From the NCBI GenBank assembly GCA_938010745.1, contig CALLVF010000007.1:1-27061 (forward strand): 27,061 nt of DNA, in the 5' to 3' direction. The stretch comes from an uncultured Patescibacteria group bacterium (GTDB taxonomy: Bacteria > Patescibacteriota > Microgenomatia > UBA1406 > GWC2-37-13). The notes under the pieces were generated by a model. It had not been told where the DNA came from, made no database searches, and saw nothing but the letters and a program-made list of their open reading frames with translations. This document shows positions 4,557 to 19,012 of this stretch, piece after piece (within the stretch, counting starts at the first letter, position 1; every line of letters starts with the position of its first letter). A program made the translations under genes and the position numbers.

Positions 4557-5628
4557 AAAAAAACTAAAGATTGCCCAGTTAGTTCTACCCTGGATTTCGT
4601 TACCGCCACTAACTTATGCTGGCACGGAAAGAGTTGTTTATAATTTAACTGAAGGATTGGTAAAAAAAGGCCATCAAGTGACTTTATTCTCCGTTGGTGA
4701 ATCAAAAACTTCTGCTTGCTTAGAATATGTTTTTGAAAAAGCTCTAGGATTGCAGACTGATGTAATGAAAACTTTAAAATCCTCTTTTTATCCTTTAATC
4801 CATGTTGCCCATTGTTTTGAAAAACAAAATCAGTTTGATATCATTCACTCCCACGCTCAATTTCTTGCCCTTCCTTTTGCTACCATCTCAAAAACTCCCT
4901 CGCTTCATACCTTTCATCGATCTTATGATTCCCTCTCAGAAGACGAAAATGATCTAGTTTTAAGATACGGAAAAAAACTAAACTTTACCTCAATTAGTAA
5001 TCACCAAAGAATTCCCGGTGTCAATTTTGTCGCCACCGTCTATAATGGGGTTGACACTGAAAAATATAAACCAACTACCTCTCCTAAAAGAAATTTTCTT
5101 TTCTGGGCGGGTCGAATAATTGAAAAAAAAGGACCCAAAGAAGCAATTGAAGTGGCAAAAAAACTTAATTTTCCCTTGATTCTAGCCGGGGCAATCACAG
5201 AAGTGGATTATTTTGAAAGTGAAATAAAAAAAGAAATCGATAATAATTTAATTCATTTCATTGGGGAAATTTCTGAAGATAAAATGATCGAGTTATTTCA
5301 AAATGCCTTGCTAACATTAGTGCCGATTAAATGGAATGAACCTTTTGGCTTAATTCCTGTTGAATCAATGGCATGCGCTACTCCCGTAGTTGCCTATGCC
5401 AACGGAGGAGTAAAAGAAACTGTTGTTGATGGATTAACAGGATATTTAGTTGAAGAAAAACTGGGAGTTAAAGAATTAGTCAAGAAAACAAGAGCTATTT
5501 TAGAAATGAACAAGGTGCAATACCAAAAAATTTCCAAGAATGCCCGTGAACATGTGGTAAAAAATTTTTCTCTTGAGAAAATGGTAAATGATTACGAAAA
5601 AGTTTATTATCAAATTTTAGGGCTATGA
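4549..5628 (+). CDS. Glycosyltransferase family 4 (AviGT4-like subfamily)
   Basis: PWISLPPLTYAGTERVV, GRIIEKKG, WNEPFGLIPVESMACATPVV; overlaps the upstream gene by 8 nt. Confidence 0.92.
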   Translation: MSKKKLKIAQLVLPWISLPPLTYAGTERVVYNLTEGLVKKGHQVTLFSVGESKTSACLEYVFEKALGLQTDVMKTLKSSFYPLIHVAHCFEKQNQFDIIHSHAQFLALPFATISKTPSLHTFHRSYDSLSEDENDLVLRYGKKLNFTSISNHQRIPGVNFVATVYNGVDTEKYKPTTSPKRNFLFWAGRIIEKKGPKEAIEVAKKLNFPLILAGAITEVDYFESEIKKEIDNNLIHFIGEISEDKMIELFQNALLTLVPIKWNEPFGLIPVESMACATPVVAYANGGVKETVVDGLTGYLVEEKLGVKELVKKTRAILEMNKVQYQKISKNAREHVVKNFSLEKMVNDYEKVYYQILGL

Positions 5629-6794
5629 AAATCGCCATATTATCTCCACCCTGGATAGCGCTTCCGCCAACTGGTTATGGAGGGACTGAACGAGTGGTTT
5701 TTGAATTGACAGAAGGCTTAGTAAAAAAAGGTCATCAAGTTACCCTTTTCGCCACTGGCGATACAAAAACCTCTGCTCGCTTAAAGTATTATTACAAAAA
5801 CGCCTTAGGCAACGATTGGAATAAAAAGCAAAGTCAATATTTAGCCCTTTATCATATCCACAATTTCATCTCGTTGGTAAAAAAAGAAAAATTTAATATT
5901 ATTCACAATCACTCCTTTTACTTAACGTTATTTTTCCTATCTCTTATTAACACTCCTTTCCTTACTACTTTGCATAATCCCTTATATTCTAAAATTAAAG
6001 AGTTAGGCAGAGCTGATGATCGAAATATTGAGGAGAAAAGAAACATCCTTATTTATTTTAAAAATTATCCTTTTGTTAGCATTTCCAACCATCAACGAAA
6101 AGGATTACCTCAACTCAATTACATCAAAACTATTTACAATGGCGTTAAAGTAGATAAAATTAAATTCAGCCAAAAAAAAGGAACATATCTTGCCTGGTTG
6201 GGAAGAATAAGCCCAAAAAAAGGGGTTGATCTGGCAATAAAGGTAGCCTTAAAATTAAATCTTCCTCTTAAAATATCAGGATATATTGATCCCCTTGATC
6301 AACAATTTTTTGATGAGAAAATTAAACCTTTAATTGAAAAAAATTCCTCAACTATAACTTTTTTGGGAGAATTCAAAGATGAGGAAAAAAAGAATCAATT
6401 TTTAGGAGATGCTCTTCTTACTCTTTTTCCTTTGCGCTGGCATGAGCCATTTGGGATTGTCATGATTGAGTCTTTAGCAGCCGGAACACCAGTTGTTGCT
6501 TTTGCGCAAGGGTCTGTCCCTGAAGTTATAAAAGACGGCAGTACGGGATTTATTGTCAATCCAAAAGATACGCAAATCCAAGAAGACTTTATTATCAAAA
6601 AAACTGGGATTGAAGGACTGCACGAGGCAGTAGAGCGAATTTACTCAATGCCGGAAAATGAGTACCGACAAATAAGACACAACTGCCGCCTTCATGTAGA
6701 AAAGAATTTTACTGTCGAGAGAATGGTTGAGGAGTATGAGAAAGTGTATTATCAGATAATAAATTCAAAATCCGAATCTCAAATCTCAAAATGA
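5625..6794 (+). CDS. Glycosyltransferase family 4 (AviGT4-like subfamily)
   Basis: PPWIALPPTGYGGTERVV, GRISPKKG, WHEPFGIVMIESLAAGTPVV; ATGA overlap with the upstream paralogue. Confidence 0.92.
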   Translation: MKIAILSPPWIALPPTGYGGTERVVFELTEGLVKKGHQVTLFATGDTKTSARLKYYYKNALGNDWNKKQSQYLALYHIHNFISLVKKEKFNIIHNHSFYLTLFFLSLINTPFLTTLHNPLYSKIKELGRADDRNIEEKRNILIYFKNYPFVSISNHQRKGLPQLNYIKTIYNGVKVDKIKFSQKKGTYLAWLGRISPKKGVDLAIKVALKLNLPLKISGYIDPLDQQFFDEKIKPLIEKNSSTITFLGEFKDEEKKNQFLGDALLTLFPLRWHEPFGIVMIESLAAGTPVVAFAQGSVPEVIKDGSTGFIVNPKDTQIQEDFIIKKTGIEGLHEAVERIYSMPENEYRQIRHNCRLHVEKNFTVERMVEEYEKVYYQIINSKSESQISK

Positions 6795-6951
6795 TAATTG
6801 AAAATTCAAAATTCAAAGCGCAAATGTCAAATTAAGAAGCTTTGGATTTGATTTGAAATTTGATTTTGACCTTTGAAATTATTGATTTTTGAGTTTTATG
6901 ATTTATTTTTTAGTTGTTATTTTGAGATTTTAATTTTAAAGTTTGAATTTT
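6761..6951. repeat. Heptamer-periodic imperfect palindrome (~190 nt hairpin)
   Basis: aaatctcaaaat 6781-6792 is the exact reverse complement of 6919-6930; aaattcaaa 6761-6769 pairs with 6942-6950. Confidence 0.8.
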
Positions 6952-6952
6952 T

Positions 6953-7234
6953 ATGTATTCAGTCAAGGATATCTTAAAAAACTTCAATCCCCTAAAAGAC
7001 AAGTACGTCTCTCATGATTTTCAAGCTTTTGGGATATATCTTGCTCAAAAATTAGATGATGAAAAAAGAAAAAGTCTTTATATTAAATTAGCAAAAAATA
7101 TTCCACGATCGATTTTAGAGGAAGCATTAAGGTTTGTTTTGGATGCCAAAGCTAGAAAAAAAGGCGCTCTTTTTATGTGGAAGCTAAAAGAGCTAAACGC
7201 CTTTAAAACTGCAAAATCCAAATCTAAAACTTAA
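6953..7234 (+). CDS. Small basic helical hypothetical protein (of a type seen in Microgenomates)
   Basis: Clean 93 aa ORF with ATG; SLYIKLAK...ILEEAL...ARKKGALFMWKL; no assignable function. Confidence 0.75.
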   Translation: MYSVKDILKNFNPLKDKYVSHDFQAFGIYLAQKLDDEKRKSLYIKLAKNIPRSILEEALRFVLDAKARKKGALFMWKLKELNAFKTAKSKSKT

Positions 7235-7378
7235 AAATGAAAACCTAAAATCCAAATTTCAAAAACAAAATTTCAAATGAAGATCAAAATCAAAATAATA
7301 AAATATAATTTAAGCTTTGAATTTGATTTGAAATTTGGACTTTGACCTCTGAAATTTTTAAATTTTGAGTTTTATAAT
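7212..7378. repeat. Heptamer-periodic imperfect palindrome; homologue of the 6761-6951 element
   Basis: tccaaatttcaaa 7251-7263 is the exact reverse complement of 7327-7339; 7312-7378 aligns to 6837-6902 with about 8 differences in 67 nt. Confidence 0.8.
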
Positions 7379-7423
7379 ATTTAATTATTAGCTTTTTTTA
7401 AGGTTTTAATCTCGCATTAAATT

Positions 7424-8623
7424 TTAAAAATATCCCCATGCCCAATAAGCTATCGATCCTATACCCTTTTCTTTTAAAAAGTTAGTTTTAATTTTTACTG
7501 ATTCCTCATCCTCAAACCAAACAATGTGATAATAAAGATTATAAATCCCTTGATCATCTGCCTGTTTTGAGGAAATAACATAATTAATCTCAATTTCTTT
7601 ACTTGCTTCATCACGCTTAATCAAGCAATTTTCAAAAAAACAAACAAAATTAGTATCAAATGAGAATAACTCATTTTTACTTGATTCTTGCCAAGAAGCT
7701 GCAGTAAGAAATTTTTCTTTGATCTGTTTTGTTGTTAAAGCTTTAGCTTGTTTTATTGGTCTTTTTTTCTCGTCAACCTGCCAATCATAACCATACATAC
7801 CAAAAATGACTGTTAATTTTCCTGGCTTGACAAATTTTAAAAAATCATCAATCATGGTTTTGAAATCGTAACCAAAGTTGCCTTTTCCCTCAAAGGGAAA
7901 ATTAGGTCCTGGCTGACCATAACTTTTGTGAAAATCATATGCCATTATCATTACCTCATCAGAATGTTCAGCTAAAAATTTAACATCAAAGGGCCGACTT
8001 CGATAAAAAGTATCACCATACAGGATAACTGCTATTTTTAAATTTTCACTTTTAATTTTTTCTTGAAAATATTGTACAAAATTGTTAATTCTTCTTACTA
8101 TATCATCTGTTGGCAAACTGTTTATCTCCAAATCTAGCGCCACCCCTTGAAGATTATAGTTTTTTACTATATCCACTGTTTTTTTTGTGATTAAGAATTG
8201 CTCTTTTTCATCTGAAACCTGAGTTATTTTTAAGGCAAACCACACTTCACCTTTAAAATTTTGTTGCGATTGTATCAACTCATAAAAAACCGCAAAATTT
8301 TTCTCACTACCAAAATAGATTACTCTTTGATATTCATTTAAATGATTCCTCTCTGTTTCATTTTGAGTTGTTTTTAAATGATTAATTTGCCATTCGGGAA
8401 CAAAAATCGTTTTCGATTTCTGAGAAGTAATTTGCTCAACTAAGTTTTTTCTTGGAAGAGAATCATCATTAAGTAGTTTATTTTTTAATCGCTTTTTTTC
8501 TTCGTGAAGTTCTTTTCTTTTCCCTTGTTTGTTAATTAGATCAAGTCCTAAAATAATTGCAAATGAAAAAATAAGAAATAAAGCAATCAAAAACAATTTC
8601 TTTCCCAAATAAATATATTTCAT
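7424..8623 (-). CDS. Membrane-anchored glycoside hydrolase family 18
   Basis: N-terminal TM helix; GVALDLE (DxE), VMIMAYDFH, FGMYGYDW, GIGSIAYWAWG. Confidence 0.85.
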   Translation of the reverse strand: MKYIYLGKKLFLIALFLIFSFAIILGLDLINKQGKRKELHEEKKRLKNKLLNDDSLPRKNLVEQITSQKSKTIFVPEWQINHLKTTQNETERNHLNEYQRVIYFGSEKNFAVFYELIQSQQNFKGEVWFALKITQVSDEKEQFLITKKTVDIVKNYNLQGVALDLEINSLPTDDIVRRINNFVQYFQEKIKSENLKIAVILYGDTFYRSRPFDVKFLAEHSDEVMIMAYDFHKSYGQPGPNFPFEGKGNFGYDFKTMIDDFLKFVKPGKLTVIFGMYGYDWQVDEKKRPIKQAKALTTKQIKEKFLTAASWQESSKNELFSFDTNFVCFFENCLIKRDEASKEIEINYVISSKQADDQGIYNLYYHIVWFEDEESVKIKTNFLKEKGIGSIAYWAWGYF

Positions 8624-8663
8624 CTTAAAATTAAATTAAGAAGCATTCTGGTTTAATCTAAAT

Positions 8664-9065
8664 CTAATCTCGAATGTGACGTAATCCCAAATATGCAAGT
8701 GCAATTGCGCCTGCGCCTATTGACCAAGGTTCTAATTGCTCTGGTGAAAAATACTGTGTTGCTGCTGCAGCTGCCAATGTGACTACTCCTGAGGTCGCTC
8801 TATATTTTTCATCTTTGAATAAACCCATATACCCACCAAAAGCTTCAATAAAATTTAATCTTCTAGAGAAAGTTGCTGTTGGCAATGCCGCCAATAATGA
8901 TACTACAGTATGAGGAAGAACTCCTAATAATCCAAGAGCATTAGGTATCTCTCTGAGTATGTACAAAAGACCATAGACGCTTTCAGATGTACCTGATAAA
9001 AAATTTCTTAAATTGTCTAGAGATTTTCCGCTAGAAGCATCGGTGATACTTTTTGATATTTCCAT
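8664..9065 (-). CDS. Hypothetical small membrane protein
   Basis: 133 aa ORF with Gly/Ala-rich hydrophobic segments and a good upstream promoter. Confidence 0.6.
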   Translation of the reverse strand: MEISKSITDASSGKSLDNLRNFLSGTSESVYGLLYILREIPNALGLLGVLPHTVVSLLAALPTATFSRRLNFIEAFGGYMGLFKDEKYRATSGVVTLAAAAATQYFSPEQLEPWSIGAGAIALAYLGLRHIRD

Positions 9066-9099
9066 AATTATAAAATAAATTTTTAATAATCTTTTTTTA

Positions 9100-9128
9100 A
9101 TTATACACTTTTTCAGTTAAAAAATCAA
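9100..9128 (-). promoter_or_regulatory. sigma70-type promoter (TTGATT-17 bp-TATAAT)
   Basis: Reverse complement: -35 at 9128-9123, -10 at 9105-9100. Confidence 0.55.
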
Positions 9129-9271
9129 TAGTTAAATTAGTAAAAAAGTAAAAAAAGCAATGATAAAATTTTTAAAAAGAAGTTATAATTGAAACAGTTA
9201 TCAGAAAAAAACAGAAAGATTGATAAATTTAATGTTAAAAATTGATAACGAATAGTGGGCGTGGTGATTTT

Positions 9272-10006
9272 TTATTTTTTTATTTGATTTTTAATCGCCT
9301 CAATTACTTGTCTTACTTCCTCCATCGAAGCTAAATAATAATATTTTTTTATCATACCTTTCTTCCATTCATAAATTAAAGGGATACAATATGGAACATT
9401 TACCTCAACTATTTCCTTATCTGAAATTTTATTTAAATACTTAATAATCGCACGAAGTGAATTACTGTGACCAGATAAAATTATATTTTCACCTTTTTTA
9501 AGAAGCGGTTCAATGTTTTTTTGGAAATAAGGAATAGTCCTTTCATAAGTATCTTTTAACGATTCAGAAGAAGGTAGTTCTTCCACTGGTACATCATTGT
9601 ACAAGGGGTCAAAGCGAGGATGACGAGGGTCGGAGAATGAAAGTTTTGGAGGAGCAACGTTATAACTTCGTCGCCAGATATTAACTTGCTCCTCTCCATA
9701 TTTTTCCACAGTCTCTGGTTTTTCTAAACCTTGTAATGCTCCATAATGCCTTTCGTTAAGATGCCAATCGCGATATAAAGGAATATTTTTTTGTCCCAGA
9801 ACTTCCAGAAAAATCTCTAGAGTTTGATACCCTCTTTTTAAAACTGAAGTAAAACCTTTATCAAAATTGATGTTTTTTTCTCTTAAGCGTAAAGCGTATT
9901 TTTTTGCCATCTCTATCCCCTCTGGAGATAAATCTACATCAGTCCAACCAGTAAATTTTTTTGCCCAGGCTGTTAAACCATGACGAACGATGACTAAATA
10001 ATTCAT
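9272..10006 (-). CDS. gpmA: 2,3-bisphosphoglycerate-dependent phosphoglycerate mutase
   Basis: VRHG, FTGWTDVDLS, LNERHYGALQG, QVNIWRRSY, ESLKDT, HSNSLR. Confidence 0.95.
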   Translation of the reverse strand: MNYLVIVRHGLTAWAKKFTGWTDVDLSPEGIEMAKKYALRLREKNINFDKGFTSVLKRGYQTLEIFLEVLGQKNIPLYRDWHLNERHYGALQGLEKPETVEKYGEEQVNIWRRSYNVAPPKLSFSDPRHPRFDPLYNDVPVEELPSSESLKDTYERTIPYFQKNIEPLLKKGENIILSGHSNSLRAIIKYLNKISDKEIVEVNVPYCIPLIYEWKKGMIKKYYYLASMEEVRQVIEAIKNQIKK

Positions 10007-10066
10007 AAAAAATTCCTTTCCGATAATGTGAAATTTAGAAATTAAAGTAATAAAAAATACGGTAAA

Positions 10067-11299
10067 TTACAATTCATTTTCAATTTCAATTAAACGATTA
10101 TACTTTGCCAATCTTTCAGAGCGAGACATTGAGCCTGACTTGATAAAATCAGCCCCTACCCCATAGGCAAAATCAGCAATAAATGGATCCTCTGTCTCTC
10201 CAGAGCGATGAGAAACTATTACATGCCAATTATTTTTTTGAGCTAATTTAACTGCCTCAACTGTTTCCAAAACTGTGCCAATTTGATTAAGTTTTATCAA
10301 AACGGCATTGGTTGTTTTTTGATCAATTCCTTTTTTAATTAAGTTTGGGTCAGTTGTATAAATATCATCACCAACAACCATGGATGGAGAGATTTGACTT
10401 GTAAATTTAGAAAAATTTACCCAATCATCTTCAGCAAATGGATCTTCAAAAGAAAAAACCTTGTACTTATCTTTTAGCTTTTTATAATACAAAATTAGTT
10501 CATCACCTGATAAAACACAATTTTCTTTTTGAAAAAAATATTTTCCCTTTTGATAAAACTCAGAGGCGGCAGCATCTATCGCTAAATTAAAATCAGTATC
10601 ATTCTTATAACCAAGCCTATCAGCTGCCTCTAAAATCAGCTCAAAAACTTCCTCGTTGTCAGACAAAGAGGGAGAAAAACCTCCTTCATCACCAACTAAA
10701 ACAGAAAGTTTTTTTTCTTTAAGAATCTTGCCTATTTGGTGAAAGATTTCCGCTGCAATCCTTAACGATTTTGAAGGTTTGTTTGATTGAGGAGAAATTA
10801 TAAATTCCTGGACATCAAAATTCCAATTTGCGTGCTTTCCGCCATTAACAACGTTTACCATCAATCTTGGAAAATTAGTTTTTTTAAATGAGTAGTATTC
10901 ACTGATAAAACGCCAAAGAGGAATTTTTCTCGACAAAGCTATTGCTCTTACTAGTGATTGAGATACACAAAGAATGGCATTAGCACCAAGAAAGGACTTA
11001 TTTTTTGTTCCGTCTTCTTTTATTAAAATTTTATCAATTACTTCCGGCTCTGCCTTCTGACCAACAATTAACTTTTTAATTTTATCATTTACATTTTCAA
11101 TCGCCCTCAATACTCCCTTACCAAAATATCTTCTTTTATCACCGTCACGAAGCTCTAAAGCTTCATGAGAACCCGTAGATGCCCCTGAGGGAATGGAAGA
11201 TACACCAACTGTTTGATCATCAAGAAAAACAAAAGTTCGTAGAGTTGGTATTCCCCTTGAATCTAGAATCTCAATAGCTTTTACATCTTTGATTATCAT
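10067..11299 (-). CDS. eno: Enolase
   Basis: EILDSRG.PT, PSGASTG, GDEGGF, EDPF, LIKLNQIG, SHRSGETED, RSERLAKYN. Confidence 0.98.
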   Translation of the reverse strand: MIIKDVKAIEILDSRGIPTLRTFVFLDDQTVGVSSIPSGASTGSHEALELRDGDKRRYFGKGVLRAIENVNDKIKKLIVGQKAEPEVIDKILIKEDGTKNKSFLGANAILCVSQSLVRAIALSRKIPLWRFISEYYSFKKTNFPRLMVNVVNGGKHANWNFDVQEFIISPQSNKPSKSLRIAAEIFHQIGKILKEKKLSVLVGDEGGFSPSLSDNEEVFELILEAADRLGYKNDTDFNLAIDAAASEFYQKGKYFFQKENCVLSGDELILYYKKLKDKYKVFSFEDPFAEDDWVNFSKFTSQISPSMVVGDDIYTTDPNLIKKGIDQKTTNAVLIKLNQIGTVLETVEAVKLAQKNNWHVIVSHRSGETEDPFIADFAYGVGADFIKSGSMSRSERLAKYNRLIEIENEL

Positions 11300-11308
11300 T
11301 ACATATAA

Positions 11309-11382
11309 AATTTACATCTAAATAAAAAAAATTGCAAGTTTTTTAAAAATCTATTGACAAAACATTTTTTTTATTTAATAAT
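11309..11382. promoter_or_regulatory. Back-to-back divergent sigma70 promoters (eno and glutaredoxin-like gene)
   Basis: Minus strand: TTGCAA 11337-11332, 17 bp, TAAATT 11314-11309. Plus strand: TTGACA 11354-11359, 17 bp, AATAAT 11377-11382. Confidence 0.5.
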
Positions 11383-11392
11383 GAAATTTATT

Positions 11393-11965
11393 ATGAAAAT
11401 TACTATCTATACCGTCAGCGACTGTCAGTTTTCCAAAGCAGAAAAAGAATATTTAGCTTCCCACAATCTTCCTTTTGAAGAAAAAAATTTAGAACAAAAT
11501 CGAGAATGGTTGTCTGAGATGTTGACTATATCCAATAACTTTGCTGGTACGCCAGTTACCAAAATTGAAAAAGATGATGATCAAATAATTGTTTTAAAAG
11601 GATTTACAAAAGAAGAATTTGATAAAGCATTAAATATAACTACTCAAGAATCAAGCCCAGCGCAAACAGTGAACCAAACAACTCCCACTCCTCAAACAAC
11701 ATCAGAACCACCTCAACAGCCGCCATCACCACCAGCACAACCCACTCAACAAACCTCACAAACTTCATCAACGATTCCTTCAGTTAATCAATCACCTGCT
11801 TCACCATCCCTATCAAATCAACCGCTAACTAATACCTCATCCACTTCCACTCAACCCAATGATCCCTTAAACTCTATTCTTAATGAGTTACAAAAAAAAG
11901 TTAACGAAAACAATCCTAATCAACCCTCTACTCCGTATATTCCTGATTTCCCTGCAAAAGATTAA
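11393..11965 (+). CDS. Glutaredoxin/NrdH-like domain (CQFS) with long P/Q/S/T low-complexity tail
   Basis: ITIYTVSDCQFSKAEKEYL, GTPV cis-Pro site, KGFTKEEF; then ~100 aa low-complexity region. The ORF-track TTG start at 11354 is the -35 box. Confidence 0.8.
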   Translation: MKITIYTVSDCQFSKAEKEYLASHNLPFEEKNLEQNREWLSEMLTISNNFAGTPVTKIEKDDDQIIVLKGFTKEEFDKALNITTQESSPAQTVNQTTPTPQTTSEPPQQPPSPPAQPTQQTSQTSSTIPSVNQSPASPSLSNQPLTNTSSTSTQPNDPLNSILNELQKKVNENNPNQPSTPYIPDFPAKD

Positions 11966-12090: not shown

Positions 12091-12112
12091 GAATTATCTT
12101 GTAAATTTCAAG

Positions 12113-12183
12113 CAGGGACGCCCCGACTCGAACGGGGAAAGACGGTTTTGGAGACCGTCGTGATACCATTTCACCACGTCCCC
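12113..12183 (-). tRNA. tRNA-Trp (CCA), 3'-CCA not encoded
   Basis: GGGGACG/CGTCCCT acceptor, GTGA/TCAC D-stem, ACGGT-CTCCAAA-ACCGT, CCCCG-TTCGAGT-CGGGG. Confidence 0.95.
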
Positions 12184-12189
12184 TAAAAA

Positions 12190-12345
12190 AACATCTAGCA
12201 ACTAACACTTAACATCTAACGTCTAATTTTTAACTTTATAAACTTTCTAACTTTAAAACTTTCAAACTCTAATAATTTAAAATATTTTAATTTTCTAATT
12301 TTTAATTGTAATTTTTAATTTTTGATTTTAATTTTTAATTTATCT
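12190..12345. repeat. Periodic AT-rich repeat tract between the tRNAs
   Basis: aacactt aacatct aacgtct... then ttttaat-type units; 12204-12247 matches the reverse complement of 20611-20647. Confidence 0.7.
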
Positions 12346-12349
12346 ACAG

Positions 12350-12421
12350 TGTCCTCGGGCAGAATCGAACTGCCACCAGAGGTTCCGCAAACCCCTATTC
12401 TATCCATTAAACTACGAGGAC
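12350..12421 (-). tRNA. tRNA-Arg (GCG), 3'-CCA not encoded
   Basis: GTCCTCG/CGAGGAC acceptor, GGGGT-TTGCGGA-ACCTC anticodon arm, GGCAG-TTCGATT-CTGCC T-arm. Confidence 0.93.
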
Positions 12422-12489
12422 AAACAATTATCGCAGTTTTTTATATAAATATTCTAACACAATAAATAAAAAATTATTGCTTGAATAAC

Positions 12490-12683
12490 CAATATCTAAC
12501 ATCTAATGTCTTACAACTAACATCTAACTTTAAAACTTTTAAACTTTTTAAACTTTAATATTAAATATTAAATTTCAAATGAAAAATATCAAATAATAAA
12601 TAAAAAATTAATTACAAATATCCGAAATGTCGAATGTCAAATTTGTAATTTTTTAATTTTTAATTTTAATTTTTTGCTTCTAC
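12490..12683. repeat. Periodic AT-rich repeat tract upstream of the nuclease gene
   Basis: atctaac atctaat...; aaacttt x3; aaatatt/aaatttc; gaaatgtc gaatgtc aaatttg; ttttaat units. Confidence 0.65.
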
Positions 12684-12749
12684 CTTTTATTTTCTATTTC
12701 AATATTCATTAAGATTGAATTAAGACAACTTGTTAATTTCTAATTATGA

Positions 12750-12777
12750 TTGATATTATTTAAAAAAAATATATAAT
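12750..12777 (+). promoter_or_regulatory. sigma70-type promoter (TTGATA-16 bp-TATAAT)
   Basis: -35 at 12750-12755, -10 at 12772-12777, ATG at 12792. Confidence 0.5.
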
Positions 12778-12791
12778 ATCCTACTTAAAAA

Positions 12792-15479
12792 ATGGCTAAA
12801 GAAAATTTAATTAATGCCTGGTATCAAGAAAAAAATGATCGTTTTGATCAAGAAAAATTAAAAACATTAAAAGAATTAATTGATAATGATCAGAAAATAC
12901 TGGCTGTTTTTAATCTTTTTCCTCAGTTTGACCAAGAATTTTCTTTTTTATATTTTGTCAATCCTGACATTGGCGGCTCGCTGGGTTCTGGCTTAAGAGT
13001 AGTTTCTCTAAGAAACGTGATTGATCCAAATTTAAATATTATTATTCCCTCTTGTAACTTTGCAGGAATTTTTATTCCAAAAACAGATGACCTAAAGGAA
13101 TCATTAAATGAAGCAAAAAGAATAAAACAAACCCTCATTCGCAAAAGGACCAAATTTTATCCTAACATCCCGGAAGAATCTTTTAGGATTGCAATCGCAA
13201 CTGACAAACAAGTAGAATATTGGAAGAAATTAGGTTTTTTTGATGAAATTAAACCAAACCTAGAAAACGCTCCATCACTTTTATCAATAATTAATGCTCT
13301 TTATAATCCGAAAACTGGTTTTGGTCTTGATAATTTAGGAGTCAGGTTCCGAACCAAAGGAATAACTGTTCCTCAAATTGATGTTTCATTTTACACTTTG
13401 GATGAAAATAAAATTGCTCAACCTTGTGCTTTAACTCTTTGGGGCTGGGATAAAACTTTAGAAAATCTTGTCCCTTATGAAAATGTTACCGCCTTAGTAA
13501 GTGTCCCCCGTGAACTTCCTCTTTCTCAAAGAAAAGCAATTCAACGAGAAACACAAAAACTTCTTGTATATTGGCTAAAAAACCCAGAAGCTAATGTACT
13601 TACAGTTGATAAATCTCTTTTAAATTTTTGGCAAGAAAAAGGAGCTTTAGTTAGTGAAGAAACAAAAAGACTATTAAATTTAATTCCTTTAAGAAAAAGA
13701 GTTGATTATGGAGGCATAGCCGAAAAACCAAAATCAGCAAAATTGGTTCTTTTTGAACCAAAAACAATGGTTGGCGGCCCACAGCTTTTAGTTGATGTTA
13801 GTCTAGAAAATATTAGCTCATCAGTAATTCTTGACTGGGGGCTTCCTTATATTAATGAAGCATTAATGAGCTTGGGAAATCGACCTTCTTTCATTAAAGG
13901 ACTTAATCCTTTTTTAGAAGAGGGAATGCTACCTGAGATAAGAAGACTTTACCGCCTTGATCTTCTAACTCAATCATTAACTCCCCAAATGATTAATACC
14001 GTTTTAACTGGTAATTACTCTTTCATTTTAGGTGAAATTTACCACCGTAAAGGTTGGCAATACTTGGCAGATTTAATAAATGAAAAATTTCCCGGTTATT
14101 TTACTCTTCAGCAATTAAATGATCTAAAGACTCATTTGGAAAAGATCGAAGATGAATATTACTCTGACAAGAGAATTTTTGAGGAAGTATTAATTAGTCA
14201 TGGTCATACTGACCATTATGGTGGATTAGTATTTGTAAGAGATGAAATTACAGCAGGGATGTCACCGGAAACTTATGCTTTCCTAAACGCGCGCTTTCAT
14301 CAACCTGGCACTTGGCTTGATGAACACATAATAAGAAAAAAAAGAGATAATGAAAAAAAACCATATTCTCTTGCTAAAAGACCTATTCATCTTTACTTTC
14401 CCAATGCTTCAGAAAGAATCGCTCCCCATATATCTGTAACTGCATTTCCTTTAAATCATAGCATTATTGGTGCCCTAGGATTTGTTATTGGCATCACTGA
14501 TAAAAAAGGAAATCCCTTAACTCATGTTGCTTATTTAACTGATTTTCGCGAAGGTCCCCTAACAACAACCACCATTGAAGCGATTAAATCAGTAGCTCCT
14601 GAGGTATTAATTATAGAAGGGACAAATATTGCCGAGGAAAAAACCTCAAGTATTGTAACGGAAGAAATGGTTAAATTAAATATCGAAAAGTTTTTAAAAC
14701 AAGCTGATCATACAGGTGGATTTTTTATTATCCAAATACCACCCAATCACCTAGAAAGACTGACTAATATTGTGGAAATTGCCGGAAAAAGAAAGGTAGC
14801 TATTCCTTTACCAATTGCCCAAATCCTTCATGAATTTTATATTCTCAATGAAAATTTACCGCCAGAGCAAAGAATTAATCTTCCTAAAATTGGCACTGAT
14901 TTGGTGGTTTATTATCCTCAAAAGATAACCTATGACCCTTGGGAGCGACAATTAATTGATCAATATCAAGCAACAGATATTTTTTCCTTAACCTCTGATC
15001 CCGGCAACTACATTATTATTGTCTCCCACTATATCCTTTTGGAGAATCTTTTTGCCGGACAATTAGTAAAAAGTAAAAATTCACAAGGATACATAATCAA
15101 CGCTACCTACTGGCCATATAGCGATCAGACTAAAGCAACCTTAATGTCCAATTACCGTTTTGCTAAAGCTAATAACCTTGCTTTTTTAAGTGATTTTGAC
15201 CTCTCAAGAAATACTATTCAAAGACCAAGGGAAAAAATTATCGGTGTTCACGCCTCCGGCCACGCCAGTGATGAGTATTTACTGTCGGTTATTGATCAAA
15301 TTGCTCAAGATGGGAGTTTAAAAACTGTTTTACCTATTCATACTCAATTTAGAGGCAAATATGCAAAGAGGATAATTGAAAAGTTAAGAAAAAGAGGTGG
15401 AGGAATTTACCCAGAGCTTGATAACATAAAAATAATTGGAAAAGTAAAGAAGCGAGTAGCAGAAATTCCTATATTCTAA
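12792..15479 (+). CDS. MBL-fold beta-CASP (RNase J-like) nuclease with ~315 aa unknown N-terminal extension
   Basis: GG...ILDWG, ISHGHTDHYGG (HxHxDH, 14199-14216), NHSI, YLTDFR, LIIEGTN, HASGH (15249), PIHT (15339). Confidence 0.85.
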   Translation: MAKENLINAWYQEKNDRFDQEKLKTLKELIDNDQKILAVFNLFPQFDQEFSFLYFVNPDIGGSLGSGLRVVSLRNVIDPNLNIIIPSCNFAGIFIPKTDDLKESLNEAKRIKQTLIRKRTKFYPNIPEESFRIAIATDKQVEYWKKLGFFDEIKPNLENAPSLLSIINALYNPKTGFGLDNLGVRFRTKGITVPQIDVSFYTLDENKIAQPCALTLWGWDKTLENLVPYENVTALVSVPRELPLSQRKAIQRETQKLLVYWLKNPEANVLTVDKSLLNFWQEKGALVSEETKRLLNLIPLRKRVDYGGIAEKPKSAKLVLFEPKTMVGGPQLLVDVSLENISSSVILDWGLPYINEALMSLGNRPSFIKGLNPFLEEGMLPEIRRLYRLDLLTQSLTPQMINTVLTGNYSFILGEIYHRKGWQYLADLINEKFPGYFTLQQLNDLKTHLEKIEDEYYSDKRIFEEVLISHGHTDHYGGLVFVRDEITAGMSPETYAFLNARFHQPGTWLDEHIIRKKRDNEKKPYSLAKRPIHLYFPNASERIAPHISVTAFPLNHSIIGALGFVIGITDKKGNPLTHVAYLTDFREGPLTTTTIEAIKSVAPEVLIIEGTNIAEEKTSSIVTEEMVKLNIEKFLKQADHTGGFFIIQIPPNHLERLTNIVEIAGKRKVAIPLPIAQILHEFYILNENLPPEQRINLPKIGTDLVVYYPQKITYDPWERQLIDQYQATDIFSLTSDPGNYIIIVSHYILLENLFAGQLVKSKNSQGYIINATYWPYSDQTKATLMSNYRFAKANNLAFLSDFDLSRNTIQRPREKIIGVHASGHASDEYLLSVIDQIAQDGSLKTVLPIHTQFRGKYAKRIIEKLRKRGGGIYPELDNIKIIGKVKKRVAEIPIF

Positions 15480-15613
15480 ATCAAAGTTTTTTTTAAGATT
15501 AGTTTACTTCTATTCATTTTATTAATAAAATATTTTCCAATTTATAATATCTAAATAACGAATATAAAATTTGTAATTTTTAAATTTTTACTTTTATTTT
15601 TTATTTATTTAGG

Positions 15614-15686
15614 TGTTCTCGGGCAAAATCGAAATGCCACAAAAGGTTTCGAAAACCCTATTCCATCAATACCTAAAACACAAAAC
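15614..15686 (-). pseudogene. Degenerate copy of tRNA-Arg
   Basis: 15613-15670 aligns to 12349-12407 with 9 substitutions and 1 gap; T-stem mismatch and broken acceptor/D-arm. Confidence 0.8.
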
Positions 15687-15699
15687 TCAACTATTGCTA

Positions 15700-16111
15700 A
15701 TAACTTTTTTCCTAAAAATTTGTAAGAGATAATATAAGTATGAAGCCAGAAAATCGTTTTACCTGGAGCACCAATTTTTAATTTTATTTTTAACCTTGGT
15801 TTGACTAAAAAAAGGTTTGACTAAAAAAACCGATAACTAAATCCTCTCTAATGAACTAACTTAAAATATCTAAACTATAAGGCAAATTTTTTTCTCGTGA
15901 TTTTTTGATGAAAGGAATTTCCTGAAAAATCCTGTGTCTATGAAAATAATCAAAAATCATAAAAAATTTTTCTCAAAATTTACTGCTCCATCTTTATTGA
16001 TATATATTTTTGAACTAAGCTTTTTATTTCCTTTCTTGAAAACCTACCAACAAAAATCTTCCCGAAACCAACAATTAGCAAATAGCAATCAAAATAAAAT
16101 TTTTTTATCAT
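15700..16111 (-). pseudogene. Shattered 5' remnant of a DUF2207-like membrane protein gene
   Basis: Fragments in shifting frames: signal-like N-terminus, SKIYINKDGAVNFE, FDYFHRHRIFQEIPFIK, KIGAPGKTI..LHTYIISYK. These resemble the DUF2207 N-terminal pattern I.I..DG / RHGI.R.IP / IKIG.P..T..G.HTY.I.Y. Confidence 0.7.
15798..15829. repeat. Exact 16-bp tandem duplication (ggtttgactaaaaaaa x2)
   Basis: Directly visible; lies inside the DUF2207 remnant. Confidence 0.9.
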
Positions 16112-16179: not shown

Positions 16180-17961
16180 TTAAGAAACAGCCCTTATTGA
16201 TTGATAAGTTACTCTTGTTAAATAAAATAAATTTGAAAAAGGTACTCCAATATAATCTTTACCTATCTCTTGCTCCTTAGTATGATCAATAACTAAAACT
16301 TGCTCACCGGCTTTATAATGAAAATATTCTGATCCTTTTTTTCTTCTATTAAAAACAACATATACAACCCTTGCTTTAGCTTCTGGATTATTTTCATTCA
16401 ATTCTATAGCAATACTATTAACATTTTGACCACCTAAAAGAGTCATTCCACCTTCAACTAATAACACCCCACCATCAGGCTTTAAAAAATCTAAAGCATT
16501 TCTTATCATCTGCCATCTTTTATTAAGATCGCCCACGCAAGCAACTGTGCCTCTTAAAGTCACTAAATCACTTTTTTTAATATCTAACATCTTAGTTAAT
16601 TCTTTTTCCGTTAAATCAGTTTGACCTAAAAAAACACCTTTTCCTCTAAGATCGTTTCTCCATTGAATTATTTCTTGTAATTCTTTTTCTGCTAAAAATT
16701 CATTATCAGGATAGTTAGAATATTTTTCGTGGGAAAAAACACCATCTTTTCCTCTTTTAAATCTTTCAATAGAATAATTCTTCGGATCATCAGATAAAGA
16801 TTTAGGATCTAAAATATCAACAATATGATTTACTTCTACTAATATACCATTTTCTTCTAATCTTTTAATAAGATCATAAAAAGAAGCTCCTAAAGCTCCA
16901 AAACCTAAATCTGATACTGTTAATTTTTGTCTCCCTTTAAAGTGATCTAATAATGCCCTTTCATCATATCTGCCAGAAATTTCTCTTACTTTATTACTTG
17001 GTGCCAGGAAATCAAAAAAATCACTATATTCTAAAGCCTTAAGGAGAAAAGATTTCCATTCTTCGACAGTAAATTTTTCAATATTTCCAGCATCTATTAA
17101 ACCGTGATTTGTCAAAATCATAAGAATATGATCAAAAAGATACAAAACTCCATTATGTTCTCCTCTTAACATTTTCTCAACAACAACCATCAGACCTTGA
17201 AAATATCTTGAACCAAACTCTCTTATTTTATTATTTTGATCTTGATTCTCATAATTCTCATATTGTATTTCTTTATAACTTTTTAACAAAGATTTAAAGG
17301 CTTCAGTTAATTTTTGAGGAATTAATCTTCCTGATTCATTAAAAGATTTACATGCTTGATTATGATTAAATAATAAACCAAAAAAATAAATTGATTCTAA
17401 TTCATTTAAACTATTATCTTTCTTTTGGTGATGAAAATTATCTACATAATTACTAAATTCAAAAAATCCAGGTTTTGCTTGAGTAAAATTCATAGAACCA
17501 AATTCAAGATTAGTCGAGACTAATTGAGATGCTAAAATTAGAGTTGCTAATTTATCTTTATCCCCTGCATAAGTTTGATTAATTTCTTGAAGTAAACTAG
17601 CTATTAACAATGAAGCTATTTTATCTTCAAATTCATAAGATCTAACATACTGTCCTTTTTCATCAAATTGTCTTACTTCATTAGGTAAAATATTATAATA
17701 AAATGAAAAAGGAAAATTGTAAAGACCTTCTATATGAGGATAAATATACGATTCCATTCCACCTAATAAATATTCAAAATAAGAAGGAATTGAGCCATTA
17801 TCTCTTTTTAAAATCAAATAAATAAAACGTCTTCTAAAATCATTAGTTAATACAAGATTATAAAAATCATTGTTACATTTATAAATATCTCCAAAAAATC
17901 CTTTAAATTCACATAAAAATTTTTTTATCACTGTTTTTGTTGATTTTTCAATTTCTTTCAT
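16180..17961 (-). CDS. Hypothetical protein with C-terminal class I SAM-dependent methyltransferase (CheR-like) domain
   Basis: VSDLGFG motif I (~residue 351), IVDI, QTDL, SDLVTLRGTV, ALDFLKPDGGVLLV. Confidence 0.7.
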   Translation of the reverse strand: MKEIEKSTKTVIKKFLCEFKGFFGDIYKCNNDFYNLVLTNDFRRRFIYLILKRDNGSIPSYFEYLLGGMESYIYPHIEGLYNFPFSFYYNILPNEVRQFDEKGQYVRSYEFEDKIASLLIASLLQEINQTYAGDKDKLATLILASQLVSTNLEFGSMNFTQAKPGFFEFSNYVDNFHHQKKDNSLNELESIYFFGLLFNHNQACKSFNESGRLIPQKLTEAFKSLLKSYKEIQYENYENQDQNNKIREFGSRYFQGLMVVVEKMLRGEHNGVLYLFDHILMILTNHGLIDAGNIEKFTVEEWKSFLLKALEYSDFFDFLAPSNKVREISGRYDERALLDHFKGRQKLTVSDLGFGALGASFYDLIKRLEENGILVEVNHIVDILDPKSLSDDPKNYSIERFKRGKDGVFSHEKYSNYPDNEFLAEKELQEIIQWRNDLRGKGVFLGQTDLTEKELTKMLDIKKSDLVTLRGTVACVGDLNKRWQMIRNALDFLKPDGGVLLVEGGMTLLGGQNVNSIAIELNENNPEAKARVVYVVFNRRKKGSEYFHYKAGEQVLVIDHTKEQEIGKDYIGVPFSNLFYLTRVTYQSIRAVS

Positions 17962-18643: not shown

Positions 18644-19012
18644 ATGAAATACCAAACTGCCCCCGAGATAAAAAAGCAGATAAAACTATTAGTAAAACAA
18701 CTTAAACTTAACCATATTAAAATCAACAATATCCATTGTATCCGCTCATTTGATGCCAAAATGCGAGCAATTGCTCGTATATGGGGAATGAGCAAACTTT
18801 TCAAAGAAGTTGCTGGTCTTGAGCCTCATTATATCATCGAAGTCAACGCTCATCGCTTTGATAAATTATCCGATCGTGAAAAAATTAAAACATTAATCCA
18901 TGAACTATTGCATATCCCAAAAACTTTCTCAGGTGCTCTTCTTTCTCACAAAGGAAGATATCATCAAATAAATGATAAAATAACGGAAAAGTTGTTATTA
19001 AATTTAAAATGA
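18644..19012 (+). CDS. Small putative zinc metallopeptidase (COG4900-like)
   Basis: ARIWG, YIIEV, HELLHIP (HExxH), GAL..H. Confidence 0.75.
   Translation: MKYQTAPEIKKQIKLLVKQLKLNHIKINNIHCIRSFDAKMRAIARIWGMSKLFKEVAGLEPHYIIEVNAHRFDKLSDREKIKTLIHELLHIPKTFSGALLSHKGRYHQINDKITEKLLLNLK

Follow-up and report, generated by a model that had tools for sequence, protein, structure and literature searches.

A patchily distributed RNase J-like beta-CASP protein with a duplicated N-terminal module in a Patescibacteria genome

Architecture of the gene and its product

The subject of this report is a gene for an 895-amino-acid (aa) protein carried on a 27,061-nucleotide stretch of DNA (the window) from an uncultured Patescibacteria group bacterium (GTDB: Patescibacteriota; Microgenomatia; UBA1406; GWC2-37-13). 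The window comprises positions 1-27,061 of the forward strand of contig CALLVF010000007.1 in assembly GCA_938010745.1. We find that the protein joins an RNase J-like metallo-beta-lactamase (MBL)/beta-CASP core to a duplicated N-terminal module, and that its gene is an accessory paralogue of rnj, the gene for the housekeeping RNase J, with a patchy distribution. The open reading frame (ORF) on which the first-pass annotation had placed a beta-CASP enzyme is real and uninterrupted, running from an ATG start with internal stops absent. The gene and its parts are as follows.

12792..15479, plus strand: the 895-aa gene, with an N-terminal tandem domain and an RNase J-like MBL/beta-CASP core
12834..13256, plus strand: N-terminal repeat 1, aa ~15-155, from AlphaFold (AF2) secondary structure and hhalign against repeat 2
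13257..13727, plus strand: N-terminal repeat 2, aa ~156-312, holding the best conserved N-terminal residues
13728..14618, plus strand: first part of the MBL domain, aa 313-609, with motifs 1-4 and motif A
13845..14165, plus strand: family-specific helical insert between motif 1 and motif 2, aa ~352-458
14619..15236, plus strand: beta-CASP domain, aa ~610-815, from structural alignment to RNase J, archaeal RNase J (aRNase J) and the PDB entry 2az4
15237..15476, plus strand: C-terminal return to the MBL domain, aa 816-895, with H820-A-S-G-H824 and H850
12750..12777, plus strand: promoter-like site TTGATA-16-TATAAT, a consensus match only (11/12)

The promoter-like site ends 14 nt upstream of the ATG, and no obvious Shine-Dalgarno sequence was seen ahead of that codon. 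Thus, the transcript leader is probably very short.

The core retains a complete set of beta-CASP motifs. Members of this group are defined by the MBL motifs together with motif A, an Asp or Glu, motif B, a His, and motif C, a His or a Val (PMC3553952). MBL motifs 1-4 were found as D348 (in ILDWG), H470-G-H472-T-D474-H475, H556 and D584, and motifs A, B and C as E609, H824 (in H820-A-S-G-H824) and H850 (in P-I-H). The inserted alpha/beta domain is also present, and can be superposed on its beta-CASP counterparts in RNase J, aRNase J and CPSF73. In an alignment of 62 family sequences, H470, H472, D474, H475, H556, D584, H824 and H850 are invariant (62/62), D348 is kept in 59, and the position of E609 is occupied by Glu in 55 and Asp in 7. 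The first-pass annotation was thus right that all of the motifs are intact, including the motif C histidine; its estimate that the fold begins near residue 326 needed correction, as structural alignment places the start of the MBL fold at ~312-316. Pfam Lactamase_B_2 matches residues 466-642 above its cut-off (E 2.6e-8), and the match of RMMBL to residues 818-864 is sub-threshold (E 0.21).

The residues around motif B resemble those of RNase J. H820-A-S-G-H824 aligns with H-S-S-G-H of the same genome's own RNase J, and H820 is conserved in 58/62 family sequences, S822 in 52/62, and G823 and H824 in 62/62. In the Staphylococcus epidermidis RNase J1/J2, the H-x-S-G-H stretch is the phosphate-interaction site (PMC7864078). 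Together with the histidine at motif C, this stretch favors RNA as the substrate, in line with what had been proposed from that histidine.

Structural comparison also places the core nearest to RNase J. The full-length protein was modeled with AlphaFold from the 62-sequence alignment, giving a mean predicted local distance difference test score (pLDDT) of 90.4 and a predicted template modeling score (pTM) of 0.84; a shallow 6-sequence model reached a pLDDT of 45. Foldseek searches of the PDB returned at the top the aRNase J of Methanolobus psychrophilus (5ws2/5haa; E ~1e-20, target TM-score 0.73-0.76) and an uncharacterised Enterococcus faecalis beta-CASP protein (2az4; TM-score 0.80), with bacterial RNase J structures among the leading matches and aCPSF1 ranked lower. 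Alignments made with VIA-align against 48,161 chains cover model residues 312-895.

Two features of the core set the family apart. The distance from the start of the fold to HxHxDH has a family median of 160 residues, vs 78 in the RNase J of the Candidate Phyla Radiation (CPR) and 84 in archaeal RNase J. A family-specific insert accounts for this late position (470, with motif 1 at 348): the extra ~80 residues (~352-458) are modeled mostly as helix, and few parts of the protein are better conserved. Furthermore, the chain ends in the last MBL strands (aa 879-893), leaving no counterpart of the bacterial RNase J C-terminal domain; Mycobacterium tuberculosis RNase J aligns solely over its chain residues 12-432.

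The N-terminal region is an internal tandem duplication of ~140-aa alpha/beta domains, common to the whole family. Profiles of residues 15-155 and 156-312 match each other with an hhalign probability of 93.6% (E 2.2e-7, 103 columns). In the AF2 model, each repeat runs through several beta strands into a long helix, followed by one beta strand and then a helix that closes with W..(K/E)xG; in repeat 1 the order is alpha-alpha, four to five beta strands, long helix, beta, helix (..W..KLG). Conserved residues of repeat 2 include D197 (94%), W280 (98%), V232, G234, L276, N231 (77%) and K248 (79%). The module is modeled with pLDDT ~82-96, which, with the whole-chain pTM, suggests that it packs on the core rather than forming a flexible leader.

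No sequence method assigned the module to a recognised domain, as the first-pass annotation had said of it. Residues 1-312 have no match in Pfam, NCBIfam, PHROGs or PADLOC, a 7-sequence N-terminal profile has none among PDB sequences, and a search of the ESM Atlas with residues 1-320 gave no usable match. No Pfam domain lies in the N-terminal region of any of the 45 relatives scanned, and the repeats match no described family. Stand-alone homologues were not found by a single-sequence search of shorter proteins, and the 7-sequence profile gave just one 158-aa contig fragment. A KH-type N-terminus like that of aCPSF1 was rejected at the sequence level (hhalign <1%, in fact <=0.3%, against four aCPSF1 KH regions); the VIA-align row for 3af5 starts at model residue 210, and the Foldseek alignments to aCPSF1 are long, yet no longer than those to RNase J. 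Kinship with the RNase J C-terminal domain was likewise rejected (hhalign probability <1%).

A weak lead to the fold comes from repeat 1, the only confident part of the shallow model. In that model, aa ~12-159 superpose over 89-119 residues on PD-(D/E)xK domains, such as those of BsoBI, NucC, the Can2 nuclease domain and the BpuSI N-domain, and the secondary-structure order is alpha-beta-beta-beta-alpha-beta-alpha. The catalytic triad D...(D/E)xK is not conserved: D197, N231 and K248 are kept, with no second acidic residue. On this modeling, the chances that the repeats are restriction-endonuclease-like in fold are evenly balanced, and we offer it as a lead, not a result.

The best-supported reading is that the protein is cytoplasmic. 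Its N-terminus is hydrophilic and begins MAKENLINAWYQEKND, no signal peptide or transmembrane segment was found, and the highest 19-residue Kyte-Doolittle mean (1.58) lies within a core beta strand.

A rare family beside RNase J

The protein belongs to a family of ~900-1100 aa that has no database model or literature description, and that turned up here in the window's CPR class alone. A word-indexed search across 5.8 billion proteins recovered six clusters only, with 51-100% identity. A HMMER profile of these six, run against 1.84 billion representatives, matched 440 proteins with E <= 1e-3, of which 59 reached E <= 1e-30. Strong matches are 890-1120 aa long and align from the N-terminal region through the C-terminus; beyond ~E 1e-20, weaker matches turn into 440-550-aa single-module proteins. 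Across the 62-sequence alignment, the query's N-terminal positions are well occupied along their whole length, and the stretch preceding the MBL domain spans 301-559 residues, the query's (314) being among the shortest. The nearest neighbours in a protein-language-model atlas are 420-490-aa MBL+RMMBL clusters. Full-text literature searches yielded no description of the ~900-1100-aa family, and one review of CPR MBL-fold proteins treats proteins of 260-300 aa. Thus, the family has three hallmarks: the duplicated N-terminal module, the ~80-aa helical insert, and the lack of the bacterial RNase J C-terminal domain. The catalytic core was already known in kind; what is new is that it comes paired with a conserved insert and an N-terminal module that is duplicated and unannotated.

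Family members are rare and scattered. In a census of ~880 genomes, a profile of the close family found no member in 60 relatives drawn from the window's own genus, family and order; members are present in 7/401 genomes of the window's class (the window's own included), spread across six GTDB families. A phylum-wide sample of 401 genomes contained one other true member, from the window's class, and none from other classes of the phylum; its other 49 matches are ordinary 560-750-aa RNase J genes.

Carriers of the family also have a conventional RNase J. In the window's assembly (779 kb, 87 contigs, 90.5% complete), a canonical rnj lies on another contig (C86); its 560-aa product scores 473.6 bits against a cut-off of 400, and is 23% identical to the 895-aa protein across 260 residues. 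The GC contents of the window's contig and C86 are 0.308 and 0.304, and both correlate with the whole bin in tetranucleotide composition (r >= 0.994); a mis-binned contig is therefore unlikely, and we set that explanation aside. Canonical RNase J above cut-off is also present in 5/5 other carrier genomes examined, so that a true RNase J and a family member occur together in all six. The best NCBIfam matches of the 895-aa protein itself are RNase J models, at 24.8 bits (NF047419 RnjA, cut-off 820) and 21.3 bits (TIGR00649, cut-off 400).

A quick, indicative phylogeny separates the two. In a maximum-likelihood tree built from 80 cores, with aCPSF as the root, the CPR RNase J sequences group in one clade (Shimodaira-Hasegawa-like approximate likelihood-ratio test, SH-aLRT, 100), and the family forms another (SH-aLRT 94) that is sister to short aRNase J-like proteins (93). 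With the gene not found in the 60 relatives, present in 7/401 genomes of the class, and accompanied by rnj in its carriers, the 895-aa gene is an accessory paralogue of rnj that is patchily spread. This bears out the earlier view of it as an accessory enzyme: it is not a sole, syntenic, vertically inherited RNase J, a separate rnj lies elsewhere in the genome, and the family branches apart from CPR RNase J.

Genomic setting

The gene stands alone, without a conserved neighbourhood. Upstream are enolase, a glutaredoxin-like gene, tRNA-Trp and tRNA-Arg; downstream, a convergent unknown gene of 593 aa is followed by a phosphoribosyltransferase. The RNA features nearby are:

12112-12183: tRNA-Trp
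12349..12421, minus strand: intact tRNA-Arg(GCG), just upstream of the gene
~15571..15670, minus strand: decayed, near full-length tRNA-Arg(GCG) copy with AT-rich 3' flank, ~84% identical to ~12306-12407 and not called as a tRNA

With the intact locus before the gene and the decayed copy directly after it, the gene is bracketed by direct repeats, and the tRNA-Arg copies delimit a one-gene islet of ~3.3 kb. No integrase or other mobility gene lies in this islet. Relative to the intact tRNA, the decayed copy lies 5', the opposite of the usual attL/attR layout. AT-rich short-period repeats (TAATTTT/TAACTTT-like units, families D1-D4) fill 12204-12700 and 15550-15620, flanking the gene, and at 15798-15829 there is a perfect tandem pair of 16 nt, GGTTTGACTAAAAAAA.

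Several neighbouring genes have features of their own. The convergent 593-aa gene (16180-17961, minus strand) has no Pfam, PADLOC or PHROG match, and was not found in four related genomes. Three genes downstream, a 122-aa ORF (18644-19012, plus strand) matches PF18894, "putative phage metallopeptidase" (E 2.6e-21). The window's enolase (10067-11299, minus strand) is 41-44% identical to the enolases of two genomes of the same genus/family (G001 and G010; 72% identity between these two), and 57-59% identical to one of the two enolase copies of a further genome (G005); this may point to two lineages of enolase or to a copy acquired by transfer. No synteny was found between the window and the same-genus genome G001 around enolase.

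Relatives of the gene occupy different loci. On four metagenome contigs from one lineage, a 55%-identical orthologue lies between IleRS and an ftsZ-ftsA-ftsQ-murG-ftsW-murD-mraY cluster. In five class genomes, the neighbours include rplL, sigma-70, a WecG-type transferase, GlmS, an aminotransferase, a PHP protein and an alginate-lyase-like protein. No gene neighbourhood is conserved across the window, the four metagenome loci and the five genome loci. On one metagenome contig (L020, Ga0308421_1000217), the orthologue is split into 4803-6575 and 6708-7640 (590 + 310 aa) with a gap of ~130 nt, which could reflect either disruption of the gene or faulty assembly.

In one GTDB family, two genomes share a slot for the gene, between rplL and the WecG-type glycosyltransferase:

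L046 (G635:C1), 8243-11518: family member in the shared slot, 1091 aa
L047 (G208:C4), 8278-10983: family member in the shared slot, 901 aa

The flanking proteins are 45-79% identical, yet the two members are just 22% identical and belong to different subgroups. From the sequences, this suggests fast divergence or allele replacement at a single slot.

Proposed function and comparison with known systems

We consider it probable that the protein is a cytoplasmic two-metal RNase J-like MBL/beta-CASP ribonuclease that supplements the ordinary RNase J, with the N-terminal module and the insert guiding its choice of target. In this proposal, the core would cleave RNA through its His/Asp metal site, 5'-to-3' exonucleolytically and/or endonucleolytically, and the H-x-S-G-H stretch would receive the RNA 5' phosphate, as in RNase J. 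By analogy with the two KH domains of aCPSF1, the most likely role of the duplicated N-terminal module, together with the insert, would be to select or hold a substrate or partner. What the data show directly is how the protein is built, that its motifs are intact, that its gene is a paralogue of rnj, and that it is rare. That the protein is an active beta-CASP nuclease distinct from rnj is near certain; that it acts on RNA, and in the 5'-3' direction, is less certain.

Some points weigh against this proposal. Histidine at motif C is a correlate of RNA-acting enzymes, and some RNase J enzymes also cut DNA. Because the scores fall far below the RNase J model cut-offs, activities cannot be transferred by orthology, and the closest structure, 2az4, has no known function. 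The tree was quick and has long branches, and it is only indicative since the family clade also takes in one very-long-branch aCPSF2 row and two likely fragments. The N-terminal fold was searched within the good full-length model, and the repeat 1 search used the shallow one. Family members are known from sequence and models, and their RNase activity is predicted.

The alternatives fare less well. One 925-aa relative is named "mRNA degradation ribonuclease J1/J2" by one source (the remaining members are unnamed), which, like the weak matches to RNase J models, could indicate the organism's vertically inherited housekeeping RNase J with a lineage-typical N-terminal extension; the low scores, the rnj genes of this genome and of every other carrier examined, the gene's absence from the 60 relatives, and the separate clade make this barely credible, and we reject it. 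It is also very improbable that the protein is secreted or directed at a host by its N-terminus. CPR bacteria are episymbionts and the gene is large and stand-alone, as such a role might suggest, but the hydrophilic N-terminus lacks the signal peptide or transmembrane segment that the secretion or host-directed module of the first-pass annotation would call for, and the model confidence (pLDDT and pTM) suggests that the module packs on the core. A DNA nuclease, for DNA scavenging or processing in a nucleotide-auxotrophic CPR cell or for repair, would suit restriction-endonuclease-like N-terminal domains that bind DNA; the invariant motif C histidine and the ranking of structural matches disfavor DNA, and we hold this to be quite improbable.

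A stand-alone conflict or defence nuclease, cutting RNA or DNA to counter invading nucleic acid or cause growth arrest, with the N-terminal module as recogniser, would fit the family's patchy spread, the divergence of alleles within one slot and the tRNA islet. We nonetheless consider it unlikely. The best match in PADLOC-DB v2 (PDC-M48B, E 0.08, 9.7 bits, over the HxHxDH stretch only) is noise; neighbours are housekeeping genes (IleRS, the ftsZ cluster, rplL, sigma-70, GlmS) with no conserved partner; and the islet is free of mobility genes. A phage or plasmid origin was rejected: 50,697 phage records hold no homologue, IMG/VR has no locus, and three plasmids carry just RNase J-like core matches. 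The sensor, targeting or defensive module envisaged at first is thus still conjecture. A bolder version, rather unlikely in our estimation, is that a degenerate restriction-endonuclease-like pair acts as an intramolecular pseudo-dimer clamp on structured nucleic acid, making the core structure- or sequence-targeted in a new type of CPR-specific, fast-evolving conflict/defence nuclease. If true, it would account for the scattered carriers, the divergent alleles and the tRNA-flanked islet together.

Our preferred reading, an accessory ribonuclease, leaves the view of beta-CASP catalysis unaltered. Its interest is that RNase J-type beta-CASP enzymes are central to bacterial and archaeal RNA decay, with accessory domains (KH, C-terminal domain) setting their targets, and the family defined here bears a different accessory module, without a database model. 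Genome-reduced CPR bacteria usually shed genes; some of them have retained this second large RNase J-like enzyme, which is a candidate for specialised RNA processing or nucleic-acid conflict in CPR.

The closest known systems are the archaeal RNase J (for instance M. psychrophilus 5haa/5ws2 and P. abyssi PAB1751) and short bacterial proteins resembling it, E. faecalis 2az4 among them. These are single-module proteins of ~430-500 aa, with 14-26% sequence identity to the 895-aa protein, which adds a 312-aa module and the ~80-aa insert. Bacterial RNase J (RnjA/J1, TIGR00649/NF047419) differs in its C-terminal dimerisation domain, which the 895-aa protein lacks, and the latter scores 21-25 bits against model cut-offs of 400-820 and falls in a separate clade. 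aCPSF1/FttA offers the likeness of two tandem N-terminal domains preceding a beta-CASP RNase core. However, its domains are KH, whereas those of the 895-aa protein are not KH by profile comparison; the 895-aa protein does not match the aCPSF1 model TIGR03675 and has a core that resembles RNase J more than CPSF. All Archaea carry aCPSF1, whereas the family described here is rare.
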